NCBI GenBank assembly: GCA_028875725.1
Contig: JAPPCR010000019.1
Coordinates: forward strand, 8,483-72,482
Direction of reading: 5' to 3'
Length of the DNA stretch: 64,000 bases
Origin: Acidobacteriota bacterium
GTDB taxonomy: Bacteria > Acidobacteriota > Thermoanaerobaculia > Multivoradales > Multivoraceae
The notes under the pieces are model-generated. The model did not search any database. It had not been told where the DNA came from and worked only from the letters and a program-made list of their open reading frames with translations. The position numbers were made by a program, and so were the translations under genes. Positions 42,030-58,796 of the stretch are shown in pieces (within the stretch, counting starts at the first letter, position 1; every line of letters begins with the position of its first letter).

Positions 42030-42151
42030 GTCAGGCTCTCTCGGTGATCGCCGGCCTGGGCAGCCGGACGTTTGAAGTTCAAGTGCGGCCTGGGCCGGAG
42101 ATTACCCAAAGCCGTCCCGCCGCCCGCATGGCCGCGTGTAGAGTCGCGCCC

Positions 42152-42742
42152 ATGCCCGGGGTGGACGACTTCGAGACGCCGACGCTGCTGGTCGCCATGC
42201 CCCAGGTTCTCGATCCCTTCTTCTTTCGGGCGGTCGTGCTGCTCGCGGCTCACGAGGACGGCGGCGAAGGGGGTAGCCTGGGCTTTGTCGTCAACCGGCC
42301 GAGCCAGCTCAAGGTCGACGAGGTCCTGCGTGAACTCGACATCGAGTGGTCCGGTGACTCGGAAGTCGTGGCCTTCGTCGGCGGTCCGGTGCAGCCTGAG
42401 GTCGGCACGGTGCTGCTGTCTCTCGACGGCCTGAGCGGCCTGGAGCGGGACGGCATCACGGAGATCGCTCCGGGCGTCGGAGCGACGCAGAACATCCTGG
42501 CGCTGCGTACGCTCGCCCGTAGCGCGCCGGACCGGATGCGGCTGCTCCTGGGGCACGCGGGCTGGGCGCCGGGTCAGTTGATGCGGGAAGTCAGCCGCAG
42601 CGACTGGCTGACGGCGCCGATCGAGGAATCGATCGTGTTTTCCGGCGACCCGGTGGATGCCTGGTCTGGCGCGCTCGCCTCGCTGGGGATCGATCCGGCG
42701 TCCCTGCCGAGCTGGACCGCCGGCGACGGCGACTCCAACTAA
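42152..42742 (+). CDS. YqgE/AlgH family protein (UPF0301)
   Basis: [36 protein letters not shown]...GGPV...[16 protein letters not shown] pattern. ATG at 42152. Confidence 0.8.
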   Translation: [196 protein letters not shown]

Positions 42743-42771
42743 CGGACGGAGAGGTCCGAGGCGTCAAGTGC

Positions 42772-42806
42772 CGGTGCGCCGGTCTTCTGGCCGGCTTGTC
42801 CGGGCG
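42772..42806. repeat. Short REP-like core copy between convergent genes
   Basis: CGGTGCGCCGGTCTTCTGGCCGGCTTGTCCGGGCGG aligns with the 5' part of the long copies (GGTGCGCGGGTCTTCTGACCCGCTG...). It also matches the reverse complement of 18205-18235. Hairpin at 42778-42795. Confidence 0.55.
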
Positions 42807-42825
42807 GATGATCACCGTGGGCCGA

Positions 42826-43284
42826 TCAGGTGCCGGTGGACCCGAAGCCGCCGTCGTTGCGGTCGCCCTCCGTCGGCTGCCGGCCGAGGGCGTCGTCCTC
42901 CCGGAACGTGACTTCGGGAACGGCGGCCACCACCATCTGCGCCAGCCGCTCGCCGTGTTCGACATCGACGGGCTCGTCGCCCAGGTTGACCAGCAGCAGC
43001 TTGACTTCGCCGCGGTAGTCGCTGTCGATCGTGCCGGGGGCGTTCAGGACCGTCAGGCCCTGGCGGAACGCGAGTCCGCTGCGAGGCCGGATCTGGGCTT
43101 CGTAGCCAGGCGGCAGGCCGAGGACGAGACCGGTCGGGATCAGACAGCGCGCGCCGGGCCCGATCCGGACCGGCCCGGAGGTGGCCGCGCGCAGGTCGTA
43201 GCCGGCGCTGCCGGTCGAAGCCCGCTCCGGCAGGCCGGCGGCGTGAGGCAGCTGGCGGATCCTGACGGCGACGGCGGATGTCAT
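42826..43284 (-). CDS. dut: dUTP diphosphatase
   Basis: GSAGYDL, RSGLA, LNAPGTIDSDYRGEV, GERLAQMVV motifs. ATG at 43284. Confidence 0.9.
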   Translation of the reverse strand: MTSAVAVRIRQLPHAAGLPERASTGSAGYDLRAATSGPVRIGPGARCLIPTGLVLGLPPGYEAQIRPRSGLAFRQGLTVLNAPGTIDSDYRGEVKLLLVNLGDEPVDVEHGERLAQMVVAAVPEVTFREDDALGRQPTEGDRNDGGFGSTGT

Positions 43285-43354
43285 CCGTGCGCCCGCTGAC
43301 GGGCGCGCGGACTGAGACGCGTGTGGCGCGGGTCGCGCCACAAGGGTGCCCGGC

Positions 43355-44080
43355 TCAACGGGCCTCTCTGCCGGGCGCCGTACCGTCCTGGACCGCCGGG
43401 CCTTCGAGCACTCCGGGCGGGAACGGCTTGCCGATCCACTCGCTGGTCAGCCGGGGCGGCGGCCGTCCGTCGGCCGCATTGCCTGGCCTGAGCTGGATCA
43501 GTTCGCTTGTGAAGTACCAGTCTCCGACATCCTGCTGGCCGTTGAACACGCGCTTCGAGGGACCGGGAGTGGCGCTGTAGACGCCGAGGATCGGTCCGAC
43601 GACGGGACCTTCGCCTTCTTCCTCGTTCGGCGGCGGCACGGCCGTCATGGAACCTCCGCCGGCGGCCGCGACGGCCCCCGCGTTGGTCGCCGGCTGCGCG
43701 CCGCCTGTCTGGTTGCCGCTTCGGCCGGGATTGCTCGGCCCTCCCTGCATGAGCAGGCCCCAGCGACCGTCCTCGGCCATCGGGTTGGGCCACAGTTGGC
43801 GAATCGTACGGGGCTCTACTTCAACGAGCTCCTCGAGCGCGGTCGGCAGGCGTCCCTGGCGCACGCGAAAGATGCGGATCGCCTCGGCGTACTGCAGGCC
43901 GCGGAAGATGAGTTCCGTTTCCTTCTGTCGCTGCGCCCAACTGCTCCAGTAGGGCAGCGCGGCCGCGACCGCGATGTTCATCACCGTGATCAGGACGGCC
44001 AGGACCACCAGGTTGTAGCCGGCTTCGGAGTGGCGGGTCCGCCCCTGGCTGCGGCGGACCCCGCGGTCACCAGTTGGCAT
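43355..44080 (-). CDS. Large minor pseudopilin-like protein lacking Glu+5
   Basis: Prepilin-type leader ending ...HSEAG followed by YNLVVLAVLITVMNIAVAA. Position +5 is Val, not Glu. 241 aa with a Gly/Pro-rich centre. Confidence 0.65.
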   Translation of the reverse strand: MPTGDRGVRRSQGRTRHSEAGYNLVVLAVLITVMNIAVAAALPYWSSWAQRQKETELIFRGLQYAEAIRIFRVRQGRLPTALEELVEVEPRTIRQLWPNPMAEDGRWGLLMQGGPSNPGRSGNQTGGAQPATNAGAVAAAGGGSMTAVPPPNEEEGEGPVVGPILGVYSATPGPSKRVFNGQQDVGDWYFTSELIQLRPGNAADGRPPPRLTSEWIGKPFPPGVLEGPAVQDGTAPGREAR

Positions 44081-44516
44081 AGGCCTCCCCGTTCAGCGAG
44101 TTCTCTTCCGAACCGGAGTGGACGTCCTCGACTCCCGGATCCCCGAACGGGGACAGGTCGGTCTCGGCCCAGGGGTCTTCGTCGGCTGATGAAGGGAACT
44201 CGGCCAACACCTCGACCCAGGTCTCGGTGCTGCGAGTGATCGGGTCGGGCGGTATCGCGCGCAGGTACTCCTGCTCGACGAGCGCCTGGAGGCTCGGCGG
44301 GTAGTGGCCCTTGTCGGCGTAGTGCTGCTCGATCGCGTCGCGCATGACCCGGAGGTTCTGCTTGAGGGCCGCCTCCTGGGCCCGCCGGGGCGCGTTCTTG
44401 AGCAGGGGCACGGCGACCGCGGCCAGGATGCCGATGATCGCCATGACGATGATGAGTTCCAGCAGCGACATGCCACCCTGGGATTCCGGGCGCCGGGCTC
44501 GGACGCGTTCGTTCAT
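44067..44516 (-). CDS. gspG: Type II secretion major pseudopilin GspG-like
   Basis: Leader MNERVRARRPESQGG then MSLLELIIVMAIIGILAAVAVP (Glu+5 present). QNLRVMRDAIEQHYADKGHYP...IPPDPIT resembles the GspG body. Confidence 0.8.
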   Translation of the reverse strand: MNERVRARRPESQGGMSLLELIIVMAIIGILAAVAVPLLKNAPRRAQEAALKQNLRVMRDAIEQHYADKGHYPPSLQALVEQEYLRAIPPDPITRSTETWVEVLAEFPSSADEDPWAETDLSPFGDPGVEDVHSGSEENSLNGEAYANW

Positions 44517-44517
44517 T

Positions 44518-44988
44518 TCACCACTCCCGGTAAGCGACCCGGTTCAGACCGAGGCCGTCGCTCAGGGAGTAGACGTCGTAGACGTTCTCGCCTCCCCAGG
44601 CACGGTCGTCCGGGTCGTCCTGGTAACTCAGGAGCCCCCACTCCGCCTCGCCGGTCATCGGGTCGACGGGGATGCGGCGGAGGAACCGGATCTCGCCCTC
44701 CGCCTGCCCGATGAGCTGGATCGGCTCCACCAGGTTCTCGAGTTCACCTGGATAGCCGTCGGTGCCGATCTCGATCGGGATGAGCCCCACGTCGCTGTAG
44801 CGCTTGTGCTCGTCGATCGCGTTCCGCATCTGGCGGAGGTGGGAGCGCAGTTCGGCCTCCTTGATTCGCTTGTTCGTGAAGGTCGCGGTGGGCAGGGCGA
44901 CGGCAGCGAGGACCAGCATCACGGCGCAGACCGTGACCAGTTCGACTAGCGTGTAGCCGGCCCGCCGCCACGCGCCCGCCCGCTTCAT
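44518..44988 (-). CDS. Prepilin-type N-terminal cleavage/methylation pseudopilin (GspG paralogue-like)
   Basis: Leader MKRAGAWRRAG then YTLVELVTVCAVMLVLAAVALP. The body resembles GspG (LRQMRNAIDEHKRY...VDPMTGEAEWGL). Confidence 0.75.
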   Translation of the reverse strand: MKRAGAWRRAGYTLVELVTVCAVMLVLAAVALPTATFTNKRIKEAELRSHLRQMRNAIDEHKRYSDVGLIPIEIGTDGYPGELENLVEPIQLIGQAEGEIRFLRRIPVDPMTGEAEWGLLSYQDDPDDRAWGGENVYDVYSLSDGLGLNRVAYREW

Positions 44989-47438
44989 GCGACCGTCTCC
45001 GGCCGTTCACGATCCGCACTATCGCCGTCCCGGATCTCGATCTCGAGCGGCTGCACGGTGGGCGAGGCCAGCTCTTCGAGGGCCGGGCCTCTGGGCCGGG
45101 CATGCTCCACGGCGATGGTTGCCGTGCCGGGGTCCATGGCCCGCACCTCGAGCGCCAGCAGACGTCCCCTGCCGGCCACACCCGGCCGCTCGCCCAAACG
45201 GCTCAGGCCCACCACGACAGTGCCCGGTGTCGAGTCGTCGGTCATCAGCGAGATCTCGTCTTCGCCCCCAAGGAACGAACCTGCCCGCACGGCCGTGACC
45301 TCGATCAGAGACGGGTCGAAGCGCAGCCGCAGCGGCAGGTGGGAAAGCGGCGCCGTGGACCGGACGTCCAGCCGCACCTCGACACTGTCGCCGACGCTTG
45401 CACGCAGCGCTTCAGGGGCGAACGTGAGTTCGACTCCTCCGGTGGAGCGTTCCGCACGTTCCTGGAACACCGCCGGGAGGATGACCTGCGGGGAATTGGA
45501 GACCCGCGGGGAACCGGGGGCGCGCGTGGAATCCAGCAGACCGGCGTTGCGCGGCGGATTGCCGGGCGGCGGCACGAGCTCGACGCCCAGCGGCGGGCCT
45601 TCGTCTTCCTCCCCCGGTGGCTGTTGGCCCTCCGGCGCCGCGTCCCGCAGGCCCGGCGGCAGCCGGTCCTGGAGTTCGTCGCTGGCGCCGTCCGTGGCGT
45701 CCGGTTCGTCGAAGGGGCCGTCGACGCCGGAGTCGACCCGCGGGCTCGAGCCGCGGTAGACGACGTTGCTCTCCGTGCCGACCCAGATGGGCGCGAGGTC
45801 CTCCTCCCGGATGTCCGCGCGCCGGATGATGTGGGGGGTCAGGGTCAGCACGATGTCGGTGCGCTTGTTGTCGGTCGAGCGCCGGGAGAAGAGACGCCCC
45901 AGCACGGGGATCTCGGACAGCCCGGGAATCCCGCCCTGAGTATTCGTCTCGGACGTTCGGATCAACCCGGCCAGGAAGTTCGTCTCTCCGTCCCGCAGCC
46001 GGATGCTGGTGTTGATGTTGCGGCTGCCGATGATCGGCTGGCTTTCGATCCGGCCGCTGATGTTGCTGACCTCGATGTCGAGTTCGAGCGAGACCTCTTC
46101 GTTGTGATGCACCCGCGGCGTGATCTGCACGTCGATGCCGACGTTCTGGTACTGGTAGGAGGTGATCGGCACGATGTTGCTGCCCGCCGTGTTCGCAGTG
46201 TTGAAGCTGGTGACCGGGATCGGCACCCTGTCGCCGATCGAGAACGACGCCTCTTCACCCTCCGTGATCCGCACCTGCGGTTTGGCCAGGGTCTGGGCGT
46301 CGGTCGCAGTCTTGACGAAGTCGAACAGGAAGCCGGGCACGCTCAGCACCCAGTTGTTCTGATTCAGGGACTCCACGTCCGACATCCTGAGCGGCACCTC
46401 CTCTCCGCCGATGTCGAGGCTGATGCCGAGGCGGTTGGCGTCCAGGGACATTCCGAGTTCCTGGAGCTTCGATGTGTCGATCTGGAGCAGTTCCACGTCG
46501 ACGACAACCTCGGCCTTCGCCTTGTCGTTCTGCTCGATCAGCCGTTCCGCGATCTTGACCTTCTCCACGCTGTCGAGCATGGCGATCGCGTTCAGCCGTT
46601 CGTTGGTCGCGATGAACCGCGTGTTCAGCAGGCTGCGCAGGATGGTCATCACGTCACTCACTTCCGAGTTCGAGAGGAAGAACGTCTGGATGATGCGGTC
46701 CTCGAACCGCTGGCGGTTCTGCTGCGTGTCCTGGAGGATCATGATCGTCTGTTCGTCGAGCACGCGGTAGAAGTGGCCGAGGCTGTGCATCAGGATCTCG
46801 AGACCCTCGATCGCCGTCACGTCGCGCAACTCGATGCCCTCGGGCCCGACCGCTGCGTCGCGCAGCCTGGTGTCGAAGACGATGTTGATCCCGAAGGCCT
46901 GCCCGATCGCCCGGTAGACCTCCATGAACGTCGCGTTCGGAAAGTCGAAGCTGACCGGCTCGTTGGACAGCGGACTGAGCGTCGGCGGCATCGGCTCGGC
47001 GGCGCGGGCATCGTCCTTCATCTGGGAGATGGTCCTGGGCTGGAGGCCGCTGGTTTCGATCTTCGTGCGGAGCTTCTCGAGTTCGGTCAGGGCGTACTGA
47101 TTGGTCGGATCGAGCTGCACGGCCCGCTGCATCTCGAGCATCGCGTCCCGGTCACGGCCGGCCTCCTGCAACTTCCTGCCCGCTTCGAAGTGGGCATGGG
47201 CGGCCTGGGTCTTGGCCCGCAGCAGGCCGGCCCGGTAGCGGAGATCCGCCGGGTCCTCGGTGACCAGTTCCATGTAACGGAGCACGGCGGTGTCCCAGTC
47301 GCCCGTGAGCTCCGCGTGCTGCGCCTCCCGGAAGCTCCGGTAGCCGCTGCAGGAAGCGAGGATCAGGAGCAGCGCCAGCCCCAGTGAGAGCGCGCGCCGC
47401 CGTTGCCGCCGGTCTGGTTGTCGATCGTGTTCGTTCAT
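44985..47438 (-). CDS. Outer-membrane secretin lipoprotein (GspD/PilQ/MshL-like) with N-terminal TPR module and C-terminal cohesin-like domain
   Basis: Lipobox LILASC. TPR-like helices (residues about 30-130). Secretin core ...TLAKPQVRITEGEEASFSIGDRVP...GGIPGLSEIPVLGRLFS...LTLTPHII. A C-terminal region of about 150 aa, VGDSVEVRLDVRSTAPLSHLPLRLRFDPSLIEVTAVRAGSFL...GRGRLLALEVRAMDPGTATI, fits the cohesin pattern. Confidence 0.85.
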   Translation of the reverse strand: MNEHDRQPDRRQRRRALSLGLALLLILASCSGYRSFREAQHAELTGDWDTAVLRYMELVTEDPADLRYRAGLLRAKTQAAHAHFEAGRKLQEAGRDRDAMLEMQRAVQLDPTNQYALTELEKLRTKIETSGLQPRTISQMKDDARAAEPMPPTLSPLSNEPVSFDFPNATFMEVYRAIGQAFGINIVFDTRLRDAAVGPEGIELRDVTAIEGLEILMHSLGHFYRVLDEQTIMILQDTQQNRQRFEDRIIQTFFLSNSEVSDVMTILRSLLNTRFIATNERLNAIAMLDSVEKVKIAERLIEQNDKAKAEVVVDVELLQIDTSKLQELGMSLDANRLGISLDIGGEEVPLRMSDVESLNQNNWVLSVPGFLFDFVKTATDAQTLAKPQVRITEGEEASFSIGDRVPIPVTSFNTANTAGSNIVPITSYQYQNVGIDVQITPRVHHNEEVSLELDIEVSNISGRIESQPIIGSRNINTSIRLRDGETNFLAGLIRTSETNTQGGIPGLSEIPVLGRLFSRRSTDNKRTDIVLTLTPHIIRRADIREEDLAPIWVGTESNVVYRGSSPRVDSGVDGPFDEPDATDGASDELQDRLPPGLRDAAPEGQQPPGEEDEGPPLGVELVPPPGNPPRNAGLLDSTRAPGSPRVSNSPQVILPAVFQERAERSTGGVELTFAPEALRASVGDSVEVRLDVRSTAPLSHLPLRLRFDPSLIEVTAVRAGSFLGGEDEISLMTDDSTPGTVVVGLSRLGERPGVAGRGRLLALEVRAMDPGTATIAVEHARPRGPALEELASPTVQPLEIEIRDGDSADRERPETVA

Positions 47439-47451
47439 GTGGTTCAGATCC

Positions 47452-48060
47452 TTAGCTTCCGGTCGGCCGGCCACCGATGGCGAGCCGCACCGGCTGTTCG
47501 TCCGGGAAACCCACGAAGAGCAGGTCGACCGACTCGTAGCCGATGTTCTGCACTTCGAACTTGTCCTTGACGAGGTCGCCCTCGAGTGCGTTGAAGATGG
47601 ACTTGTCGGCGTCGATGAACACCGCGATCGGATTGTCGCTGCGCCCGAAAGAGCCGATATAGAAGATGTCGATCGGCGGCGGCGCGGGGCCGATCGGTTC
47701 CGGCGCCGGCGTCTCCGGGATGGTGAGTGGCGGCGGCGTCTCCGGGATCGCGGGCCGCTCGGGTTCGGGGGGCGGGGCCGTTTCCAGCTCGGGGAGGGCC
47801 GTCTCGGGCGCCGGCCGGCTGCCGAAGGACCAGGGATCCCGGGTCGGGCTGCTGGCCGGCGGCGGCTGGTCGAGGGTGTAGGCGGCGAGCTCGAAGACGT
47901 CGATCGTGGTCGAACGCAGGTCGCCCGCGGTCGTGCGGGTGAAGCCGGGACCGCCGCCGAACGACGGCAGGTAGCGCCACGCGGCGACCACCACGACGAT
48001 GCCGAGCAGGCCCAGCAGTAGCGGGTTCGGCCGGCTGGAGCCGGCCTGGGCGGCGCTCAT
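47452..48060 (-). CDS. PilP/GspC-like bitopic protein (TM, Pro-rich linker, C-terminal beta domain)
   Basis: The ATG at 48060 overlaps the upstream stop (ATGA). One TM helix (LLLGLLGIVVVVAAW). Linker PPPEPERPAIPETPPPLTIPETPAPEP. C-terminal IAVFIDADKSIFNALEGDLVKDKFEVQNIGYESVDL resembles PilP/HR domains. Confidence 0.6.
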   Translation of the reverse strand: MSAAQAGSSRPNPLLLGLLGIVVVVAAWRYLPSFGGGPGFTRTTAGDLRSTTIDVFELAAYTLDQPPPASSPTRDPWSFGSRPAPETALPELETAPPPEPERPAIPETPPPLTIPETPAPEPIGPAPPPIDIFYIGSFGRSDNPIAVFIDADKSIFNALEGDLVKDKFEVQNIGYESVDLLFVGFPDEQPVRLAIGGRPTGS

Positions 48061-48638
48061 GCTCCCGCCTCCTGCTGGCCGGTCCGGGACTCGTTGCCGG
48101 AGAAAAGGGTAGACAGCCGGAGGTCGATGCGCAGGTTCGGCGTCGCCTCGCTCAGGCTGATCGACTCGAGGGCCACGAAGGTGTCCGTGACCTCGAGCAG
48201 GTTGACCAGGCCCCGCAACTGGCGGTAGTTCCCCTCGACCGTGAACACGATCGACTTCTCGACCAGACCGTACTGCTCCAGGGTCGCCTCCGGGTAGGAG
48301 ATCGAGCCGGGACGGAGTCCCGAGCGGTCGGCCAGTTCCTTGACCTCGCCGATCAGGTCGGTCAACCGTTCGCGCTCGGTCGCGAATCCCTCGCGGTACA
48401 GGGTTCGCACGTGGCTGCGGGTCGCCTCGACCGTCGTGACCTGGCCCTCGCGGCGGGCCACTTCCTGGGTGGCACGCGTGCGCAGGTTCTGGACCTGGGC
48501 GATCTCGTCCTCGAGCGCCTGAAAGCGGCCGGCGTAGACGCCGCGGTAGGTGGACAGCAGAGCCGCGTTGAGGACGCACAGGCCCGCGCCGACCCAGAAC
48601 CAGATGCGCAGGCGCCAGCCGCGCCGTCGCCGTCTCAC
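48057..48638 (-). CDS. pilO: PilO/GspM-like inner-membrane assembly protein
   Basis: A single N-terminal TM helix, a coiled coil, then a ferredoxin-like C-terminal region (FTVEGNYRQLRGLVNLLE...ALESISL). Sits after a pilN-like gene with a 4-nt overlap. Confidence 0.65.
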   Translation of the reverse strand: MRRRRRGWRLRIWFWVGAGLCVLNAALLSTYRGVYAGRFQALEDEIAQVQNLRTRATQEVARREGQVTTVEATRSHVRTLYREGFATERERLTDLIGEVKELADRSGLRPGSISYPEATLEQYGLVEKSIVFTVEGNYRQLRGLVNLLEVTDTFVALESISLSEATPNLRIDLRLSTLFSGNESRTGQQEAGA

Positions 48639-49261
48639 GGCTGATCCTCCGCGGCGTCGCCGGCGCCGCCGGGCAGGTAGACGACCGCGATGGTGAAGTC
48701 CAGCGGGCCGGCGTCCTGCCGGCTCTCGTGGAGCAGCTTGGGATCGTCGAAGGCGGGGTGCTCGAACAGGGCGTCGATCAGATCGAGCAGGCCCTGGTCA
48801 TCCTGGGCTTCGCCCGTCAGGTCGAGGACCACCCGGGACCGGTCGCCGGTTCCGAGCTCCGCGCGCCGCCGCCGGTTCCGGTCGCCGCGCTCCGGCGCCA
48901 GACTTCGCAGGCGCGTGTTCCACGGCAGTACCTGCTCGATGTCGTTGAAGAGTTGCCCCCAGGGGAAGCGCCGGTCCGCGATGCGTTCGTTCAGGAAGGC
49001 GACTTCGCGGTTCTGCGCCTCCAGGTCGAGGCGCGCCAGTTCCGTGCTCAGGCGGTCGAGTTGCGTCTGGTCGCCGGCGAGTTGCTCCCGCAGCCCGGAG
49101 AGTTCGGCGCGGGCGTCGGCGGAGCCGGTGAGGTAGCCCCAGTACAGCACCGCGTTCAGGGTCAGCAGGGCGAGGCCGAGCGCCCACAGCACAGCGGTCA
49201 GCCGGCGCCAGGGGCGGCGGTTGACGAACGGTCGGGCCGCCAGATTCAGGGACCTGCTCAC
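48635..49261 (-). CDS. pilN: PilN-like (fimbrial assembly) protein
   Basis: N-terminal LNLAARPF (INLLP-like) motif, a TM helix, then a coiled coil. 4-nt overlaps on both sides. Confidence 0.65.
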   Translation of the reverse strand: MSRSLNLAARPFVNRRPWRRLTAVLWALGLALLTLNAVLYWGYLTGSADARAELSGLREQLAGDQTQLDRLSTELARLDLEAQNREVAFLNERIADRRFPWGQLFNDIEQVLPWNTRLRSLAPERGDRNRRRRAELGTGDRSRVVLDLTGEAQDDQGLLDLIDALFEHPAFDDPKLLHESRQDAGPLDFTIAVVYLPGGAGDAAEDQP

Positions 49262-50265
49262 GTCCTCACCGAGAGCGAGGCGCCCAGCATCGGCAGGGCG
49301 CGGTCGAGGTCGAGTTCTCCGGCCTCGGATCCGTTGCCGGAGATCGTGTCGTCGTCGAAGACGCGGGCCGGTAGCCCCAAAGCCTCTTCCAGCCGCTCGC
49401 GCCAGGTTTCCCGCGAGGCCTCCGCCGCCAGCATCAGGACGTGCTCGGGCAGGCCGGCCTCGGCGCCGAACACGCCGCGCTCCTCGATGAAGCTCCGGGT
49501 CAACCGCAGTTCGCGCACCGCCAGTCGGGAAGCGACCGAAGGAGGGAGGGCCGGGTCGAAGCTCTTGTAGCGATAGAGAGCGGGGGCGTCCTCCGTGTGC
49601 GCCAGAAGCGAGTAGCCGTCGCGATGGGCGAGCAGAAGGAGGAAGGCGCCGGTGTCGTCCTGCATCTGCCGGATGCCGTGCGCCGCGCCGAGGCTCGCGT
49701 TCGTCACCATGCCGATGTGGATACCGGCGCGGCGGAACGAGTCCTCGATCTGGGCCAGCACCCGCTCGACGCCGAACGCGATCAGGAAACGCGTGGACTC
49801 GCCGGCGCCGTTGCCGGTCCGGGCGCCGCGCACGCGCAACTCCTCCACCCGGAAGGGAACCTGCTTGCGCAGCTTGAAGCGGAGGGCCTCCTCGCGATGC
49901 TGCGGGCTCCGGGGCACGTCCTCGAGTTCCGCGAAGGTCAGCCGCAGCCAGCGGTCCGGGAGGACGAGTGCGGCGGCCCTGACCTGAGCTCCGGTGGCGG
50001 TATCGGCGGCCTGCTGGAGTTCAGCGACCACGTCGTGGAACTGGGCGGGCTCCCGCAGCGGACCGCCCAGCGCCCCATCCTGGAACGTGTCGGCGGGCAG
50101 TTCCCGGCGCCTGACCGCCTGCAGCTCGGGCGTGGGGCCGCTCTGACGCACGAAGTGCGCCAGGACGAGTTCGCGCTCGTCGAGCAGGAACACCGATGCC
50201 GGTCCCCGAGGGTCGTCGAGGCCGGCAAGGCGCTCAATCCACGAAGGTAACCTTGTTGATCTCAC
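49258..50265 (-). CDS. pilM: PilM-like actin-fold assembly ATPase-like protein
   Basis: 335 aa, cytoplasmic. ALVLPDRWLRLTFAELEDVP...ALRFKLRKQVPFRVEEL resembles PilM. Placed immediately upstream of the pilN-like gene. Confidence 0.6.
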   Translation of the reverse strand: MRSTRLPSWIERLAGLDDPRGPASVFLLDERELVLAHFVRQSGPTPELQAVRRRELPADTFQDGALGGPLREPAQFHDVVAELQQAADTATGAQVRAAALVLPDRWLRLTFAELEDVPRSPQHREEALRFKLRKQVPFRVEELRVRGARTGNGAGESTRFLIAFGVERVLAQIEDSFRRAGIHIGMVTNASLGAAHGIRQMQDDTGAFLLLLAHRDGYSLLAHTEDAPALYRYKSFDPALPPSVASRLAVRELRLTRSFIEERGVFGAEAGLPEHVLMLAAEASRETWRERLEEALGLPARVFDDDTISGNGSEAGELDLDRALPMLGASLSVRT

Positions 50266-51919
50266 GGAGAGTGGTCACTCCTTCGCGGACTTTCTCCAGC
50301 GCGCTCTGGCGCAGGAAACGCATTCCTTCCTCGCCGGCGGCGCGGCGGATCTCCGATGCCGGTCGTCGGTCGAGGATCAGTTCACGGATCGCGTCGGACA
50401 GATCGAGGAGCTCCGATACCGCCATCCTTCCGAAGAAACCGGTGCCGTTGCACTCCATGCAGCCCCGGCCCTCGAAGAGTTCCCAGCCGGCGATGTCCTC
50501 CCGCGCGAGACCGCTCTCTTCGAGCAGCGTGTCGGTGGCGCGCACCGGCTCCCGGCAGTGGCTGCAGATGCGTCGGACCAGCCGCTGGGCCAGCACGCAG
50601 TTCAACGCCGCCACGAAGTTGTAGAGGTCCACGTTCATGTTCAGGAACCGGCCGAGGACGTCGACCACGTTGTTCGCGTGGACCGTCGTGAACACGAGAT
50701 GTCCGGTCAGCGCGGACTGGATGGCGATCTGCGCCGTCTCCTCGTCCCGGATCTCGCCGACCATGATCTTGTCCGGGTCGTGGCGGAGGATGGAGCGGAG
50801 GCCGCGGGCGAACGTCAGCCCCTTTTTCTCGTTCACGGGAATCTGGGTGATGCCGTCGAGCTGGTACTCGACGGGATCCTCGATCGTGATGATCTTGTCC
50901 TCGCTGGACTGGATCTCGGACAGGCAGGCGTAGAGCGTGGTCGTCTTGCCGGATCCGGTCGGACCGGTGACCAGGACCATGCCGTACGGCTCCCGGATGA
51001 ACTTGCGGAGCTTCGCGATCGTCCCGCCGTCGAGGCCGAGGACGTCGAGCCGCAGGTTCCTGAACTCCTGGTTCATCGACTCCTTGTCCAGGATGCGGAT
51101 GACGCAATCTTCGCCGTGGACGGAAGGCATGACGGATACGCGGAAGTCGATCGTGCGGCCGCTGACCCGGACCTTGAAGCGGCCGTCCTGGGGAATCCGC
51201 TTTTCGGCGATGTCGAGCTCGGACATGACCTTGATCCGGCTGACGATGGTCTGGTGGTGGCGCTTGTCGATCGGCTCCATCGCCTGGTAGAGCACGCCGT
51301 CGATCCGGTACTTGATGACGACTTCCTGCTCGCGCGTCTCGATGTGGACATCCGAAGCCCGGCGCTGGATTGCATTGAACAGCGTCGAGTCGACGAGCTT
51401 GATGATGGGGCTCTGGTCGGCCGAGATCCGGTCGATCGAGAGCACCTCGCCGCTGTCCTCGTCTTCCTGGACGAGCTGGATCTTGAAGTCCTCGGTCGCC
51501 TCGTCGAGGACCCGCTGCGCGCTCTCGGACTTCTGCAGGAGATCCTCGATCTCGGACCGGACGCCGATGCGCGCCTCGAGCGGTTGCCCGAGTTGCAGTT
51601 CCAGTTCGTCGACGCGGACAACGTCTGTCGGGTCGGCCATGACGACCGCCAGGCGGCCCTCCAACTGGCGTTCAGGGATGAAGCTGTAGCGGAGCATCAG
51701 GTCGAAGGGGATGTGCCGGAAGAGGTCGTTGTCGATGCGGAAGTTCGCGAGATCGGCGACCTCGAGCCCGAACTGCGCCGCCAGCCGGGCGGCCTCGGCC
51801 CGTTCCCGGCCGAGGCGGTCGTCCTCGTCGCCCCCCGCCCGCAGGCTCTCCAGATCGGACACGCCCTCCGCGATCAGGCGACGGTTGCGCGCCGCGGCGC
51901 TCTCTTCGTGGACGACCAT
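50234..51919 (-). CDS. gspE: Type II secretion / type IV pilus assembly ATPase (GspE/PilB family)
   Basis: The ATG at 51919 shares 1 nt with the gspF stop. T2SSE N-terminal domain, Walker A GPTGSGKTT, Asp box, Walker B IMVGEIRD, His box, and a tetracysteine CSHC...CMEC motif. The upstream part of the 1168-aa ORF is an artefact. Confidence 0.92.
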   Translation of the reverse strand: MVVHEESAAARNRRLIAEGVSDLESLRAGGDEDDRLGRERAEAARLAAQFGLEVADLANFRIDNDLFRHIPFDLMLRYSFIPERQLEGRLAVVMADPTDVVRVDELELQLGQPLEARIGVRSEIEDLLQKSESAQRVLDEATEDFKIQLVQEDEDSGEVLSIDRISADQSPIIKLVDSTLFNAIQRRASDVHIETREQEVVIKYRIDGVLYQAMEPIDKRHHQTIVSRIKVMSELDIAEKRIPQDGRFKVRVSGRTIDFRVSVMPSVHGEDCVIRILDKESMNQEFRNLRLDVLGLDGGTIAKLRKFIREPYGMVLVTGPTGSGKTTTLYACLSEIQSSEDKIITIEDPVEYQLDGITQIPVNEKKGLTFARGLRSILRHDPDKIMVGEIRDEETAQIAIQSALTGHLVFTTVHANNVVDVLGRFLNMNVDLYNFVAALNCVLAQRLVRRICSHCREPVRATDTLLEESGLAREDIAGWELFEGRGCMECNGTGFFGRMAVSELLDLSDAIRELILDRRPASEIRRAAGEEGMRFLRQSALEKVREGVTTLREINKVTFVD

Positions 51920-53157
51920 CAGCCCTGCACCTGTCCCAGCACGCTGAAGAGCGGCAGATACATCGAGAGCACGAGCAATGCGATCGTGCAGCCCATGACG
52001 ACCAGCATCACGGGCTCCACCAGCGAGAGGAGCCGCTCGGTCCGGGTTTCGACGTCCTCGTCGAGGAAGTCGGAAACGCTGTTCACCATCTCGTCCAGGG
52101 CGCCGGTCGCCTCGCCGACCTTGACCATGTCGATCGCGAGGTCGGTGAAGACCTCCGATTCCTCGAGGGCCACGTGGAACGCCTCGCCCTCGCGGATGCG
52201 CGGTCCGAGCGCTACCGCCCGTTCGTGCAGGAAGCGGTTCGTAACCGCCGACGCCGCGGTTTCGAGCGCCGAGGCGAGCGGCAGGCCGCCGTGCAGCAGG
52301 GTGGCCAGGGAGCGGCAGAACTCGGACAGGGCGAAGCGGTGGAAGATCGGCCCGATGAACGGCAACCGCAGTTTCAGGCGGTCGACCAGGGCGCCGATCC
52401 GGCCGCTCCTGCCGATCCTCCAGCTCGCCCAGGCGGCCACGGCGACCGCGGCCATGAGCGCGAGGGTGGTCGGGCTGCGCAGCACTTGGGACACGGCGAG
52501 GAGGAGTTGCGTGAGCCAGGGCAGATCGAGGTCGAGCGCCACGTAGAACTCCTCGAAGCGCGGCATGACGAAGAACATCATCACCGCCACGATGCCGACG
52601 GAAAGGCAGATCAGGAGCGCCGGATAGAAGAACGCGCTGACCACCCGCTTGCGGGAACTCGTGACGAGCTTGAGCTGGCGGACGTACCGGCGAATGACCC
52701 GTTCCAGGCCGCCGCTCTGCTCGCCGGCCTTGAGCATCGAGCTGTAGATCGGCGGGAAGGAGTTGCCCGCCGCGGCAAAGGCCTCGGAGAGTTCTTCGCC
52801 GCTCTCGACGCGGTCCCGGATCTCGCCCAGCGACTCCTTGAAGGCGGCGTGGCGCTGCCGCTCGCAGAGCAGGTCCAGGCACTGGAGCAGGGGCAGTCCG
52901 GCGCTGAGCAGGCCCGCCAACTGCTGGTTGAAGATCAGGAAGTCCTGCCCCGGGACCGCCTTGCGGCTGCTCTCGGCGGCGGCCGAACCCGTGCCCAGAA
53001 GCGCCCCGAAGAGGTGCTGGAGGCCGCGGCGCCTGATCTCGAAGACGTACAGGCCGCGGCGCTCGATCTCGCGCCGCGCGGTGCGCAGATCCGGCGCCTC
53101 GTGGATCTGCTCCACGATGCGACCGTCGGTGGTGCCAAGCCGGCAGACGAACTGCAT
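51919..53157 (-). CDS. gspF: Type II secretion platform protein GspF/PilC family
   Basis: 412 aa with two T2SSF repeats (...FPPIYSSMLKAGEQSGGL... and ...FTDLAIDMVKVGEATGALDEM...) and 3 TM segments. Confidence 0.9.
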   Translation of the reverse strand: MQFVCRLGTTDGRIVEQIHEAPDLRTARREIERRGLYVFEIRRRGLQHLFGALLGTGSAAAESSRKAVPGQDFLIFNQQLAGLLSAGLPLLQCLDLLCERQRHAAFKESLGEIRDRVESGEELSEAFAAAGNSFPPIYSSMLKAGEQSGGLERVIRRYVRQLKLVTSSRKRVVSAFFYPALLICLSVGIVAVMMFFVMPRFEEFYVALDLDLPWLTQLLLAVSQVLRSPTTLALMAAVAVAAWASWRIGRSGRIGALVDRLKLRLPFIGPIFHRFALSEFCRSLATLLHGGLPLASALETAASAVTNRFLHERAVALGPRIREGEAFHVALEESEVFTDLAIDMVKVGEATGALDEMVNSVSDFLDEDVETRTERLLSLVEPVMLVVMGCTIALLVLSMYLPLFSVLGQVQG

Positions 53158-53172
53158 GACCCGACCCCGCTC

Positions 53173-53910
53173 CTAGTCGCCGGCGCCCAGGCCGTCTTCG
53201 CGGGGAGACCGGACGGTCACGGCGACCACCAGGCCGCTGGCGTCGGATCCGCGGTAGGGGAGGGCGAGGACCAGCGGCTTGCCGACCCAGACGTTCAGGT
53301 GGCCGTTGAAGACGCGCTCGTCGAGGACGGCGCTGCGGCTGCGCTCGATCTCGACTCCGTACAGCTTGAGGCGGCGGTCGAGCAGCACGGTGCCGACCCG
53401 GAAACCGAGCCGGAACTCGGTGCCGATCTCGTAGCGGACGTTCTCGCCCTCCGTCGCTTCGAACTGCCCCTCGCCGAGCAGCCGGTAACTCGTGAAGGCC
53501 AGCCAGTTGCCCAGTTCGTCGGTGAGCTGCGCGGGCAGCTCGGAGCGCGGGTCGCCGCTGCCGCGGCGCGACGCCTCGAGGATGAAGATCTCGAACTCGA
53601 TCTGCTGGCGCGGGTGGTCGAAGTCGCGCAGCAGGGCGAGCAGGTGCTCGAGTACGCTGCTCCGGTCCCTGAGCACCAGAGTGTTCGTCGCCCGCTGCAG
53701 TTCGATCGTTCCCTGGGGCGACATCTCGCTCTGCATCCACTCCAGGGCGTCGTCCGCCCGTTGATGCTGGAGCGTGAAGGCGTGGCGAATCTGGGTTTCA
53801 GCCTCCTGCTGTGCGTCTCCCGGTTGCGCGAATGCCGGCTGCAGTGTGCCGGCGGCAGTCAGGAGGGCCAGGGCGGCGAGGGCCCGGCGAACGGCGCTAG
53901 CGGCGCTCAC
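53173..53910 (-). CDS. Periplasmic protein with a secretin N-domain-like (NolW/Secretin_N) module but no secretin pore domain
   Basis: The GTG at 53910 overlaps the anti-sigma stop (GTGA). Signal peptide ALAALALLTAAGTLQPAFA. FTLQHQRADDALEWMQSEMSPQGTIELQRATNTLVLRDRSSVLEHLLALLRDFD resembles a secretin N1-type domain. Confidence 0.55.
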   Translation of the reverse strand: MSAASAVRRALAALALLTAAGTLQPAFAQPGDAQQEAETQIRHAFTLQHQRADDALEWMQSEMSPQGTIELQRATNTLVLRDRSSVLEHLLALLRDFDHPRQQIEFEIFILEASRRGSGDPRSELPAQLTDELGNWLAFTSYRLLGEGQFEATEGENVRYEIGTEFRLGFRVGTVLLDRRLKLYGVEIERSRSAVLDERVFNGHLNVWVGKPLVLALPYRGSDASGLVVAVTVRSPREDGLGAGD

Positions 53911-54494
53911 GGCGCCACCACCAGGACCACGTCGAGGCCGGAGCCGTGGCCGTTGCCGGGAAGCTGGTAGACCTGCAGCGGCTCGTCGCCGAGCGGCTCC
54001 ACGAGCGGTGCCATCGCGATGTGGTCGGGCAGCACGGGCGGGTCGCCCGCGATCTCGTCCGTGGGCGGCACGCTCTCGGGCCACAGCAGGAAACTCAGAC
54101 CGAGCGCCGCGGCCGCGACTCCGGCGGCCAGTACCGAAGCCATGGGCAGGCGCCGGCGGGCGCTCCGCGCCTCGTTCAGGCGCTTCTCGGTCGCCCGTCC
54201 GTCGAGCTCGAGCCGCACGCGCTGGCGGATCGCCTCGACGTCGGCCGCGCTGACCTCTTCGTCGTTGTCACGGGCGGAGTTGCCACCGGCGGCAGTGTCG
54301 CCGGCGGAAGGGCCGCTGAACAACAGCACCGGATCGACAGCGAGCGAGGCCACGCGACAGCGTTCGCAGTCCTCGCGGTGGCGGAGAGCGTCTTCCCAGG
54401 CGGCGTCCACCGTCGCGTCGCCGACTTCCGAACTCCTTTCGGCCCGCTCGCGTTCGCGCACGAGGGCAGCCCAGTCGGGACAGGGAGAAGTCAT
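53907..54494 (-). CDS. Zinc-finger (zf-HC2) anti-sigma factor, single-pass membrane protein
   Basis: H-x3-C-x2-C motif (HREDCERC). TM helix ASVLAAGVAAAALGLSFLLW. ATGA overlap with the sigma gene. Confidence 0.8.
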   Translation of the reverse strand: MTSPCPDWAALVRERERAERSSEVGDATVDAAWEDALRHREDCERCRVASLAVDPVLLFSGPSAGDTAAGGNSARDNDEEVSAADVEAIRQRVRLELDGRATEKRLNEARSARRRLPMASVLAAGVAAAALGLSFLLWPESVPPTDEIAGDPPVLPDHIAMAPLVEPLGDEPLQVYQLPGNGHGSGLDVVLVVAP

Positions 54495-55198
54495 GGGCGC
54501 TCCTTTCTGCCGGCGCGGGTCCCGGCTGTCTGCGCGTACTCGGGGTAGCGCCTGAGCAGCTCCTCGCGGAGCAGCTTGCGGCTGTTGAACAGGTGGTTGC
54601 GGACGGTCGAGGGACGGATGCCGAGGATGCCGGCGATCTCCTTGCCGGCCAACCCCTCCATCTCGCGCAGCACGAACACCGCGCGCTGCTTGTCGCTCAG
54701 AGTGGAGGCGAGCTCATGAAACACGGACCGGACCTCACTGGCGGACAACGAATCGAGTTGCCGCGCGGAGACTTCGCCCCGCTGATGCTCGTCGTGCAAC
54801 TGGAAGCTCTGCAACGAGCGGAGGCGGGAGGCACGGGAGCGCAGGTGGTCGATCGCGAGGTTCGAGACGATCCGGTAGATCCACGTGTTCGGGCTGTACC
54901 GGCGGTCGAAACGATGCCGCGAGTTCCAGATGCGCAGGAAGGCGATCTGGACGATGTCGCGTGCGTCTTCCCGGTCTCCCACGAGCCGGGTGGCCAGACG
55001 AACCAACGGGGTCGTCTTGCGGCGCATCAGTTCGTCGAGCGCGAGGTCGTCGTCGCCGCGAAGGCCCTCGAGCAGCTCGGCGTCGGACGCGTCGGCCCAC
55101 GCCACCTGACGCTGGTGGCGGGAGTACGCGATCGTGAGACCGCTCCGGGGAGGATCTTCGCGTGGCGGTTCCATGCGGATGGCTTGCGCGGATCTCAT
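54491..55198 (-). CDS. ECF-type RNA polymerase sigma factor
   Basis: Region 2 (ARDIVQIAFLRIWNSRHRFDRRYSPNTWIYRIVSNLAIDHLR). Region 4 (QRAVFVLREMEGLAGKEIAGILGIRPSTVRNHLFNSRKLL). Confidence 0.9.
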   Translation of the reverse strand: MRSAQAIRMEPPREDPPRSGLTIAYSRHQRQVAWADASDAELLEGLRGDDDLALDELMRRKTTPLVRLATRLVGDREDARDIVQIAFLRIWNSRHRFDRRYSPNTWIYRIVSNLAIDHLRSRASRLRSLQSFQLHDEHQRGEVSARQLDSLSASEVRSVFHELASTLSDKQRAVFVLREMEGLAGKEIAGILGIRPSTVRNHLFNSRKLLREELLRRYPEYAQTAGTRAGRKERP

Positions 55199-55375
55199 GC
55201 CTCGCTGTTGATACGGAGGCCCGGGGCAAAGCGTCCAAGCCGCGCTTCGGGAGATTGGAGGGCCCTCCGCCAGCAGGCGGCGGAATTATACTCGTCCGTC
55301 GATACGGGGCTTCGGCAGCCCCATGAGTTCACCGCGCGTCGCACCGGAAGCGGTTCGGCGCCCGGCCGTCACCTT

Positions 55376-56659
55376 ATGTGGTTCCTCTACCAGCTCGCGA
55401 TGGCGGCAGGGTTGGGCGTGGCGGCGCCGGTGCTGCTGGCTCGGCGCGGCCGGCACTACCTGCCGACGCTTCCTGCCCGGCTGGGACGTTTGCCGGAGGC
55501 CCGGGGAATCAGACCGCTGTGGCTGCACGCCGCGTCGGTGGGCGAGGCCGGAGTGGCGGCGACCCTGGCGCGGGCCCTGCCGCCGGACCTCGACCTGGTG
55601 GTGACGACGGTGACGCCCACCGGCCAGGCGGCGGCGAAGAGGCTGTTCGAGCCGCTCGGCGCGGACGGCCGGAGTGTCGTCGTCACCTACCTGCCGTTCG
55701 ACCTGGGGTTGCTGGTCGGGCGGTTCCTGGACCGTTACGCGCCGCGGGCGCTGGTCCTCTTCGAGAGCGAGCTCTGGCCCCTGCTCCTTCGGGACTGCCA
55801 CCGCCGGTCGGTTCCCGTGGCGGTGCTCAACGCCCGCATCAGCGACCGCAGCTACGGGCGGATGAAGCGGGCGGGACGCCTCTACCGGCGATTTCTGCTC
55901 GACCCGCTGGGTCGGCTGGGCGCCCAGAGCCCGCAGGACGAGGAGCGTCTACTGAGCCTCGGCGCCGGGTCGGTCCGCACGTCGCTGACCGGCAACCTGA
56001 AGTTCGACACTCCGGAACCGGCCCCGGTGGCGGACCTGGAGCAGGCCCTGCGGGATCTCGCGGGGGATCGGCCGATCCTGATCGCGGGCTCGACGATGCC
56101 CGGCGAAGAGCCGATCGTCCTCGACGCCTTCGAGCGACTGGATCGCGAGGCGCTGCTGGTTCTGGCGCCCCGCCATCCGGAACGCTTCGACGAAGTATGG
56201 CGAGAGGTGGAGGAACGGTCGTTGCCGGGGATCCGACGGAGCCGGATCGCCGCGGCCGGGGACACGGCGCCGCGGTCGGCCTCGCCGCCCGGGATCGTCC
56301 TGCTTGATTCCCTGGGCGAGCTGGCCTCGATCTACCGGCTCGCGTCCGCCGCCTTGATCGGCGGCACGCTCGTGCCGACCGGCGGCCACAACCCGATCGA
56401 GGCGGCGCGTTTCGGCGTGCCGGTGATCGTTGGCCCGTCGATGGAGAACTTCCGGCGCATCGCGCGCGACCTCGAGGCCGCGGACGGCGTGACCGTGGCG
56501 GCTGACGGCGAGGCACTGACCGAAGCGTGGCGGCGTTGTCTGGACGACCCGGCCGGGGCGGCGGAGCAGGGCTGGCGCGGTATGGCGGTCGTCGACCGGA
56601 ACCGGGGCGCGGTGGAGCGCTCGGTGGAGCTCCTGAGCGAACTGGTGGACCTGGATTGA
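55376..56659 (+). CDS. waaA: 3-deoxy-D-manno-octulosonic acid (Kdo) transferase
   Basis: ATG at 55376. WLHAASVGEAGVAATL, the PRHPERF motif, and GGTLVPTGGHNPIEAARFGVPVIVGP. Confidence 0.9.
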   Translation: MWFLYQLAMAAGLGVAAPVLLARRGRHYLPTLPARLGRLPEARGIRPLWLHAASVGEAGVAATLARALPPDLDLVVTTVTPTGQAAAKRLFEPLGADGRSVVVTYLPFDLGLLVGRFLDRYAPRALVLFESELWPLLLRDCHRRSVPVAVLNARISDRSYGRMKRAGRLYRRFLLDPLGRLGAQSPQDEERLLSLGAGSVRTSLTGNLKFDTPEPAPVADLEQALRDLAGDRPILIAGSTMPGEEPIVLDAFERLDREALLVLAPRHPERFDEVWREVEERSLPGIRRSRIAAAGDTAPRSASPPGIVLLDSLGELASIYRLASAALIGGTLVPTGGHNPIEAARFGVPVIVGPSMENFRRIARDLEAADGVTVAADGEALTEAWRRCLDDPAGAAEQGWRGMAVVDRNRGAVERSVELLSELVDLD

Positions 56660-57645: not shown

Positions 57646-57756
57646 GCCCCGGAACGCCGTGGAGACGGCATTCCGGCGCCGCCGCCGTCGCGAGGTGCGC
57701 CTGCCTGGAAGCCGGCCGCCAATCCGTCCTTGTCTGCAGACGCCGCCGGTCTACCG

Positions 57757-58749: not shown

Positions 58750-58757
58750 TTCAGGTC

Positions 58758-58796
58758 CGCCTCGCTGGCAGGGTGTTCACGTCGACGCTCCGGTCC
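58758..58796. repeat. 39-bp direct repeat, copy B (just after the rpn stop)
   Basis: See copy A. It is followed by sequence resembling the lpxK 3' end (about 70% over 30 nt; LPWLAERLED versus lpxK C-terminal LRWLSDRLER). Confidence 0.8.

Follow-up and report, generated by a model that had tools for sequence, protein, structure and literature searches.

What does a tight run of genes that begins with a sigma factor and ends with pilin-like proteins encode, and does the sigma factor belong to the machine behind it? This question is raised by a 64-kb window (the whole stretch of Acidobacteriota DNA that was analysed, from contig JAPPCR010000019.1, with about 70% GC), in which 13 consecutive co-directional open reading frames (ORFs) occupy positions 43355-55198 of the minus strand and span less than 12 kb. 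In order, they encode an extracytoplasmic function (ECF) sigma factor, an anti-sigma factor, a small exported protein (secN), a GspF-like platform, an assembly ATPase, PilM-, PilN- and PilO-like proteins, a membrane-anchored protein that is called "PilP" here, a secretin and three pilin-like proteins (pp1, pp2 and pp3). By its gene content, the cluster is a compact machine of the type IV filament superfamily that resembles a type II secretion system (T2SS). The reading that we favour, and hold with moderate confidence, is that the cluster is one operon of 13-14 genes in a sponge-associated, Candidatus Multivorans-like bacterium (class Thermoanaerobaculia), encoding a T2SS-like type IV filament machine with its own ECF switch and with secretion as its most likely output. 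Soils and sponges harbour Acidobacteriota in abundance, and the secretion and pilus systems of this phylum have hardly been characterised.

Gene order, promoter-like motif and conservation

The first-pass annotation of this DNA had described 13 co-directional genes joined mostly by 1-38-nt overlaps or short gaps. All 13 ORFs are present on the minus strand and their junctions are indeed tight, but the largest overlap is 32 nt (gspE/pilM); the other extreme is a 15-nt gap (secN/gspF). The 4-nt overlaps annotated between the sigma and anti-sigma genes (ATGA) and between the anti-sigma gene and secN (GTGA) were both found. Further 4-nt overlaps occur at pilM/pilN, pilN/pilO, pilO/pilP and secretin/pp1, and the remaining junctions are a 1-nt overlap at gspF/gspE, a 1-nt gap at pp1/pp2 and a 14-nt overlap at pp2/pp3. 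Because the N-terminus of the PilM-like protein (MRSTxLPSW) is kept in relatives at only 40% identity, the 32-nt overlap can be taken as real. The alignment of 19 orthologues showed that the secretin starts at ATG 47438 and not at GTG 47474, and with this correction the pilP/secretin junction is a 13-nt gap. A gene map filtered by GC content at the third codon position recovered 11 of the 13 ORFs, with a third-position GC of 0.81-0.93 that is typical of genuine genes in this genome; gspE and the PilP-like gene were missed by this filter, which is a crude one. In a scan for terminators, no intergenic terminator-like site was found on the operon strand. The terminator-like sites were all intragenic, and their number was near chance (8 found, 5.0 ± 1.7 in shuffled sequences).

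The cluster is bordered by the divergent gene kdtA/waaA (from 55376) on one side and by a convergent algH-like gene on the other. Our alignment of the kdtA-sigma intergenic region showed two conserved islands within otherwise divergent DNA. The island nearer to the sigma gene (55211-55236, minus strand) carries a bipartite ECF-type promoter-like motif, GGACG-N16-CGTAT, whose full form across loci is T[AG]GACG-N15-CCGTAT(A/C). It ends 10-13 nt before the sigma ATG (about 12 nt in the window). We retained 80 related loci with a total of 1.42 Mb, 69 of which hold the sigma gene. The pattern [AG]GACG-N16-CGTAT has 62 matches in these 1.42 Mb, where about 4 would be expected from shuffles. All of them lie directly upstream of sigma and on the sigma strand (62/69 sigma loci), and no copy was found elsewhere in the 1.42 Mb, neither inside the operon nor facing kdtA. 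The spacer sequence differs between clades; both boxes and the spacing are fixed, and the motif is also present in the distant lineage L081.

The -35-like box of this predicted promoter reads GAC and not the ECF-typical AAC, and a CGT-like -10 box is present. The geometry of the island is that of a putative autoregulated ECF promoter. Because the motif occurs only upstream of sigma and the junctions behind it overlap, co-transcription of the whole machine from this promoter is the most economical explanation, and on this ground we infer that the head of the cluster is coupled to the machine. Since the -10 box ends only 10-13 nt before the ATG, the sigma mRNA would be near-leaderless. Soil-clade loci show no Shine-Dalgarno sequence between the -10 box and the sigma ATG, which also suggests a leaderless or near-leaderless mRNA.

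The other island is a conserved TATAAT (55285-55290, minus strand) within AGTATAAT, which is conserved in both deep clades (kdtA-sigma intergenic regions of L001-L079). It reads TATAAT on the sigma strand and TATACT on the opposite strand, so that its strand assignment is ambiguous, and in the soil clade no more than about 10 nt separate it from the start codon of kdtA. Its possible roles are a housekeeping promoter of the operon, a promoter from which kdtA would have a leaderless mRNA, and a divergent element shared by both. A sigma-70 consensus scan of 42000-55600 found no promoter. One further candidate, TGAAC-N20-CGTAT, lies further upstream and was dropped, as it occurs only in the closest relatives.

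How widely is this arrangement conserved? With a profile of the PilM-like protein, we detected 219 relatives among the GTDB species representatives, and those nearest to it (97% identity) belong to Candidatus Multivorans and other Thermoanaerobaculia metagenome-assembled genomes from sponges. An exhaustive search with the same profile yielded 1311 cluster representatives when the limit was E ≤ 1e-3, and 135 (50%-identity clusters) at E ≤ 1e-30. Synteny was examined in the 80 retained loci, with 15 window proteins as tblastn queries. The full order, from divergent kdtA through sigma to pp3 and the dUTPase gene dut, was found in every one of the 80 loci that reaches far enough. Synteny of the sigma/anti-sigma pair in relatives had been proposed as a check on its tie to the machine; the pair is syntenic in every relative that reaches that far, and a conserved ECF-type motif (62 of 69 sigma loci) precedes it. 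Within the sponge clade PilM is 70-97% identical, and in the soil clade the identities are about 40% for PilM, about 50% for sigma and about 30% for secN.

For the lowest-scoring members of the PilM profile search, the gene neighbourhood was inspected as well. The head and the core are complete in three further lineages, namely L081, L093 and the cultured type strain Thermoanaerobaculum aquaticum MP-01 (JMFG01000007.1). In T. aquaticum the sigma is 47% identical to that of the window, and the sigma/anti-sigma/secN/gspF junctions are no looser than a 3-nt gap, with overlaps of up to 4 nt. Three other loci (L083, L086 and L092) keep the order F-E-M-N-O-P-secretin-pilins, lack sigma, anti-sigma and secN, and do not adjoin kdtA. 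In L083 and L086, an upstream region of 280-370 nt with a -10-like box, TGGTAAAT or GGTAATAT, replaces the ECF motif. Thus, the tie between regulator and machine drawn by the first-pass annotation holds by synteny in the head-bearing loci, but the head is an add-on to a wider family. The cluster is a conserved T2SS-like type IV filament system, and in the head-bearing loci it is probably autoregulated.

Two observations concern the head-less loci themselves. In L083, an ECF sigma gene (17753-18358, minus strand) is convergent to the 3' end of the cluster and is followed by a small gene and a gene for a PDZ protein. This sigma factor is unrelated to that of the window, and its position was judged a coincidence, because it is only 35% identical to the window sigma and has a GGAAC-N16-CGT motif of its own upstream. 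In L092 (1-4808), two very large genes lie directly upstream of the platform gene; their products have >977 aa (with a weak N_methyl match) and 812 aa, and the former may be a giant pilin-like protein.

Regulatory head and parts of the machine

The sigma gene (54491-55198, minus strand) encodes a 235-aa protein of the ECF group (group 4) of the sigma-70 family. It matches Sigma70_r2 (65 bits) and Sigma70_r4_2 (51 bits) and no other sigma-70 region, and scores 102.4 bits against the ECF superfamily model TIGR02937 (cutoff 42.9). The anti-sigma gene (53907-54494, minus strand) encodes a single-pass membrane protein with a cytoplasmic zinc-associated anti-sigma (ZAS) motif, one transmembrane segment and a periplasmic tail of about 58 aa. 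The motif, C5...H39xxxC43xxC46, is invariant in 19 orthologues. The first-pass annotation had assigned this protein to zf-HC2. The window protein itself has no Pfam match at E ≤ 0.01, but its orthologues in L081, L090, L093 and T. aquaticum do match zf-HC2 (PF13490). It is a ZAS-type anti-sigma factor by its motif, with putative zinc binding.

The third gene of the head, secN (53173-53910, minus strand), encodes an exported protein of 245 aa with a signal peptide, a secretin N-type domain (Secretin_N, 28.9 bits) and a short beta-rich domain of about 130 aa. Its AlphaFold model, predicted with database homologues, has a pLDDT of 83, and in a Foldseek search of the PDB with this model the top 36 matches were all secretins (best E 2.5e-8). 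Because the protein is too short for a full secretin and Secretin_N is the only secretin model that it passes, we call it secretin-like and not a secretin. When secN was compared by hhalign with the secretin of the operon, the beginning of the secretin domain could be aligned, but the probability was below 1%, which is no usable evidence. The gene occurs only where sigma and anti-sigma occur. Since the head-less relatives lack all three genes together, sigma, anti-sigma and secN are a lineage-specific three-gene module, which was gained by or lost from the wider family of compact operons.

The motor consists of two proteins. The platform (51919-53157, minus strand, 412 aa) belongs to the GspF/PilC family (T2SSF, 197 bits) and scores 307 bits against the GspF model TIGR02120 (cutoff 424) and 249 bits against PilC. 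The assembly ATPase (50234-51919, minus strand, 561 aa) belongs to the GspE/PilB family (T2SSE, 432 bits) and contains an MshEN-type N-domain, the Walker A sequence GPTGSGKTT and a CxxC...CxxC tetracysteine motif. Its scores for GspE (TIGR02533, 548 bits, cutoff 630) and PilB (543 bits) are both under the cutoffs. It is 72-75% identical in L081-L093, where the PilM-, PilN-, PilO- and secN-like proteins are only 25-35% identical. Such a gap in constraint between the ATPase and the alignment proteins is unusually large for one operon.

The next four genes had been read as a PilMNOP module. This stood for PilM by fold and profile matches and, less firmly, for the PilN and PilO types by profile matches, but "PilP" found no support at the sequence level. 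The PilM-like protein (49258-50265, minus strand, 335 aa, GTG start) has no Pfam match in the window (no PilM_2). Its family profile matches Thermus PilM (2YCH, E 3e-4), and a Foldseek search with its model (pLDDT 84) returned PilM for all of the top 10 matches (E 7e-17 to 4e-14, TM-score 0.55-0.66), with the cytoplasmic part of GspL far lower (E 1.6e-9). Its fold is thus that of PilM of the type IVa pilus (T4aP). The PilN-like bitopic protein (48635-49261, minus strand, 208 aa) comes near the Pfam PilN cutoff (21.4 bits, cutoff 22.8), and its top PDB profile match is Thermus PilN (4BHQ, E 4.9e-3). Its N-terminus, LNLAxRPF, is conserved, and we take it to resemble the PilM-binding INLLP motif of PilN. 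The PilO/GspM-family bitopic protein (48057-48638, minus strand, 193 aa) scores 23.9 bits against GspM_XpsM (cutoff 60); among its orthologues, 16/18 match Pfam PilO and 12/18 match T2SSM_b, and the top PDB match of its profile is Myxococcus PilO (E 2.6e-3). "PilP" (47452-48060, minus strand, 202 aa) is PilP/GspC-like by position and architecture only, having a membrane anchor, a Pro-rich linker and a conserved C-terminal domain of about 70 aa.

The secretin (44985-47438, minus strand, 817 aa) is a lipoprotein, like HxcQ, the secretin of the Hxc T2SS of Pseudomonas aeruginosa. It is composed of a lipobox Cys, an N-terminal TPR region, N domains, the secretin domain, a Pro-rich linker and a C-terminal cohesin-like domain, in this order. 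The lipobox Cys42 is invariant in the orthologue alignment. The window protein matches Secretin (143.5 bits) and Secretin_N (29.3 bits), and its secretin domain leans towards GspD over PilQ (146 vs 97 bits, and 74 vs 50 bits in a separate comparison). Matches to Secretin were found in 19/19 orthologues, to TPR_2 in 18/19 and to Cohesin in 14/19 (best E 2.4e-9). Three lineages within the sponge-associated clade, L018 (12919-14970), L037 (12862-14799) and L038 (12987-14996), have secretins of 645-683 aa without the cohesin-like tail, which is kept elsewhere in both deep clades and has been lost in these three. The TPR N-terminus may substitute for a separate pilotin.

Three pseudopilins had been annotated at the end of the cluster. 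For pp1 (44518-44988, minus strand, 156 aa, prepilin motif G|YTLVE) and pp2 (44067-44516, minus strand, 149 aa, prepilin motif G|MSLLE) this agrees with their N_methyl matches, but pp3 (43355-44080, minus strand, 241 aa, G|YNLVV) is pilin-like by its N-terminal segment only and has no Glu at +5. The N_methyl match of pp1 has an E-value of 2.2e-4; pp1 also reaches 22.7 bits for GspG, under the cutoff, and has a GspG-like "IPVDP" region. In pp2, N_methyl scores 26 bits, GspG (TIGR01710) 43 bits (cutoff 88.9) and Myxococcus PilA (NF041775) 36 bits (cutoff 400), and the GspH model matches only the N-terminal 45 residues. Of the three pilin-like proteins, pp2 is the strongest candidate major (pseudo)pilin. 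The Glu at +5 is also absent from the T. aquaticum orthologue of pp3, and the window protein has only a weak NCBIfam match (E 0.012). By analogy, pp3 would be a tip or initiator minor pilin of the GspK type.

To which class does the machine belong? The first-pass annotation had held that it is neither a textbook T2SS nor a textbook T4aP, and had noted no prepilin peptidase or retraction ATPase. Our per-gene HMM searches agree on both points. No component reaches an NCBIfam equivalog cutoff for T2SS or T4aP. The GspD, E, F and G models are best or joint-best matches and all score under their cutoffs (146 bits vs cutoff 351 for GspD TIGR02517). No GspC, GspL, GspI, GspJ or GspK match was found among the cluster proteins, and no prepilin peptidase (PilD/GspO) or PilT among the about 40 other ORFs scanned in the window. 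The cluster therefore lacks the family-level recognition of GspD/E/F/G, the GspC/L/M platform and the minor pseudopilins of a canonical T2SS, and neither the PilT nor the PilA-type major pilin of a T4aP was found in the 64-kb window. What it has is a clustered ATPase, platform and pilins, plus a secretin, all on one strand within 12 kb. A "generic" type IV filament system is defined by a clustered AAA+ assembly ATPase, an inner-membrane platform and one or more type IV pilins, with an optional secretin, and the cluster fits this definition.

The name "hybrid", given to the cluster at first, is apt insofar as the best matches are mixed, with a Gsp-leaning platform, secretin and pilins beside a PilB-like ATPase. 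However, it is partly semantic. GspL is homologous to PilM plus PilN, GspM to PilO, and the HR domain of GspC to PilP. Because of these homologies, the unfused M/N/O set is a variant and not a chimera.

Secretion or fibre assembly as possible outputs, and the reach of the sigma factor

Under the reading that we favour, the GspE/PilB-type ATPase and the GspF-type platform would form the motor. PilM, PilN, PilO/GspM and the fourth protein would form an inner-membrane alignment complex, standing in for the GspL (fused), GspM and GspC of a canonical T2SS, and would link the motor to the lipoprotein secretin, a self-anchoring pore in the outer membrane. The anti-sigma factor would sequester sigma at the membrane until an envelope, periplasmic or redox signal frees it. 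Candidate routes of release are redox chemistry at the ZAS motif, regulated proteolysis, and a periplasmic cue sensed via the short tail, possibly through secN. Free sigma would then use T[AG]GACG-N15-CCGTAT and, because neither intergenic space nor a terminator intervenes, would transcribe itself and the whole machine in a burst of positive feedback. Lacking Glu5, pp3 would prime a short filament of pp2 and pp1, with the prepilin peptidase supplied from elsewhere in the genome. The output would most likely be the secretion of folded periplasmic proteins via a pseudopilus piston. Secretion is favoured because the platform, secretin and pilins lean towards Gsp and because no PilT was found in the window.

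The idea of secretion gated by an ECF sigma factor is less distinct than it had first appeared, as there is a precedent. In P. aeruginosa, VreA-VreI-VreR (PUMA3) adjoins the Hxc T2SS, and overexpression of VreI induces T2SS genes (PMC2729926). As in the window, an ECF sigma and a membrane anti-sigma lie directly upstream of T2SS genes, and the signalling module includes a third small exported protein, VreA there and possibly secN here. The differences are also clear. VreI/VreR is a cell-surface signalling pair of the FecI/FecR type, and VreA carries the signalling domain of TonB transducers; in the window, by contrast, the anti-sigma factor belongs to the ZAS type and a secretin-like protein takes the third position. 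As for the machines, Hxc is canonical for Gsp, and the window cluster has unfused alignment proteins of the PilM/N/O type and only three pilins. Moreover, the Pseudomonas regulators are separate transcription units, and those of the window are translationally coupled to the machine genes. Other ECF sigma factors that drive secretion machines, HrpL/ECF32 with type III secretion and SigP with type IX secretion, are genomically linked to them (PMC7826278). In those cases, the machines and ECF groups differ from ours, and the sigma gene is not the first cistron of the machine operon.

Similar comparisons can be made for the machine. With the T4aP systems of P. aeruginosa, M. xanthus and Thermus (PilM-N-O-P-PilQ), it shares the M-N-O-P-secretin order, the PilM fold, the PilN and PilO profile matches, the PilN N-terminal motif and a PilB-like ATPase. 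It differs from them by a window without PilT, by the lack of a long PilA-type major pilin, by a secretin domain nearer to GspD, by a fourth protein with no detectable PilP similarity, and by having the ATPase, platform and pilins in the same operon. With the canonical proteobacterial T2SS (GspC-O), it shares the GspF-, GspD- and GspG-leaning parts, the lack of a retraction ATPase and a single compact operon. In contrast to that system, it has no GspC (HR plus PDZ), no fused GspL and no GspH, I, J or K, and its scores are under the equivalog cutoffs. Denise et al. (2019) listed 884 generic systems and reported T2SS-like systems in many phyla without experimental data (PMC6668835). The likeness of our cluster to these generic systems is one of definition, that is, ATPase, platform, pilins and secretin without a lineage-specific accessory set.

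In the literature, we found no description of a ZAS-type ECF pair translationally fused to a machine operon, of a co-varying mini-secretin-like gene, of a TPR-lipoprotein-cohesin secretin or of such a layout conserved across a class. Searches for ECF-headed T2SS of Acidobacteria, T2SS of sponge symbionts and pili of T. aquaticum returned nothing specific, and VreI-Hxc was the only precedent.

Several findings weigh against the favoured reading. On the side of regulation, the comparison with head-less relatives covers three loci only. Synteny alone is weaker evidence for a functional tie than it seems, because kdtA keeps its place beside sigma just as strictly as the machine does, and dut too is syntenic in many loci. 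In T. aquaticum, the region upstream of sigma gave no match to the strict motif, and there may be promoters inside the coding sequence. On the side of the output, no GspC, H, I, J or K, PDZ domain or substrate was identified, and GspD, E, F and G fall short of their cutoffs. "PilP" has no Pfam or PDB match, whether searched by a full-length profile, by a profile of the C-terminal domain or by per-member Pfam scans. The alignment proteins are unfused, of the PilM/N/O type and T4P-like. Compared with PDB sequences, the ATPase scores higher against PilB of Geobacter (429 bits) and of Myxococcus (412 bits) than against Vibrio GspE (364 bits).

Because the ATPase is nearer to PilB and the alignment proteins are T4P-like, the same operon with the same regulation might build an extracellular fibre, either a non-retractile adhesion pilus or a Thermus-like DNA-uptake or competence pseudopilus. 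We regard this as possible, although rather unlikely. The MshEN N-domain of the ATPase fits it. The TPR proteins PilF and Tgl are pilotins of type IV pili, and the TPR N-terminus of the secretin is like them; its cohesin-like tail would suit adhesion. However, no PilT or PilU was found in the window and no ComEA or ComEC gene nearby, and the pilins are short (149-156 aa), with N-terminal matches that lean to GspG and lower PilA scores. In addition, both the secretin and the platform score higher with the Gsp models (GspD over PilQ, GspF over PilC).

A more far-reaching idea concerns the head. It could be a previously undescribed envelope signalling module in which secN reports the assembly or occupancy of the pore, or an external cue, to the anti-sigma factor, and the unfused PilM/N/O T2SS-like core could be an intermediate between T4aP and T2SS. 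We consider this idea doubtful. If its first part were true, the machine would license its own synthesis, in parallel with VreA or the STN domains of TonB transducers. If its second part were true, a system with an unfused core would be open to study in a cultured thermophile, T. aquaticum.

The sigma factor could also have a wider reach than the machine. As a general envelope-stress regulator placed between the lipopolysaccharide genes (kdtA-lpxK) and the machine, the sigma/anti-sigma pair would control other genes, and the machine would have promoters of its own. In its favour, every head-bearing locus has kdtA as the divergent neighbour, the whole neighbourhood including dut is syntenic, some lineages have 50-100-nt gaps after the anti-sigma or secN gene, and the strict motif was not seen in T. 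aquaticum. However, the 4-nt overlaps of sigma/anti-sigma/secN in the window and the 15-nt gap before gspF, together with the tight junctions of T. aquaticum, speak against it. No terminator-like site follows the anti-sigma gene, the motif faces the machine and never kdtA, and sigma, anti-sigma and secN are jointly missing from head-less relatives, which do not adjoin kdtA. Such a general role is unlikely.

It is highly improbable that sequence divergence alone gives an ordinary, complete machine of the canonical T2SS or T4aP type its odd look. In favour of this idea, none of the core families (T2SSE, T2SSF, Secretin and N_methyl) is missing. However, no match was found for GspC, H, I, J or K, or for PilT or PilD in the window, the scores for all Gsp and Pil components stay under the NCBIfam equivalog cutoffs, the pilins number just three, and an extra mini-secretin-like gene and a sigma/anti-sigma head are added.

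The operon defines a compact T2SS-like type IV filament system across the class Thermoanaerobaculia. Unusually, it brings together an ECF switch of its own, a lipoprotein secretin that is pilotin-like and has a cohesin-like tail, and an additional protein of the mini-secretin-like kind. Public records label these genes as "hypothetical" or generically, and the gene-by-gene assignments given here offer a template for their annotation. The favoured reading makes a testable prediction, namely that a defined promoter motif drives the whole operon. T. aquaticum provides a cultured organism for asking how T2SS-type machines relate to T4aP-type alignment complexes. For sponge symbionts, one may speculate that the system allows a regulated release of host- or matrix-directed proteins.

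Neighbouring genes and further observations in the window

The gene downstream of the pilins is dut (42826-43341, minus strand), which encodes dUTPase and starts 13-70 nt after pp3 on the same strand. It is downstream in both the sponge and the soil clade, and in the ORF calls of the soil clade it overlaps pp3 by 4 nt. In L093 an M16 peptidase gene separates it from the pilins. A role of dut as a functional part of the system was rejected, because neither L081 nor T. aquaticum has the gene at this position. Probably dut is a housekeeping gene that is co-transcribed as a passenger, perhaps as the 14th gene of the operon.

On the other side, just past kdtA, a YhgA-like (Transposase_31) gene (57730-58749, plus strand) and an HNH endonuclease gene (59190-60146, plus strand) are found. 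This patch of 57730-60146 beside the conserved block looks like a small mobile or variable one.

The window also contains another ECF sigma gene (26361-26981, minus strand). It is followed on the same strand by a gene for a 625-aa protein with no Pfam match (24368-26245) and then by genes for two FG-GAP/ASPIC (UnbV) repeat proteins (22110-24311 and 20335-22113). The region 20335-26981 (minus strand) may be another ECF-headed operon. A third FG-GAP protein is encoded at 61695-63977.

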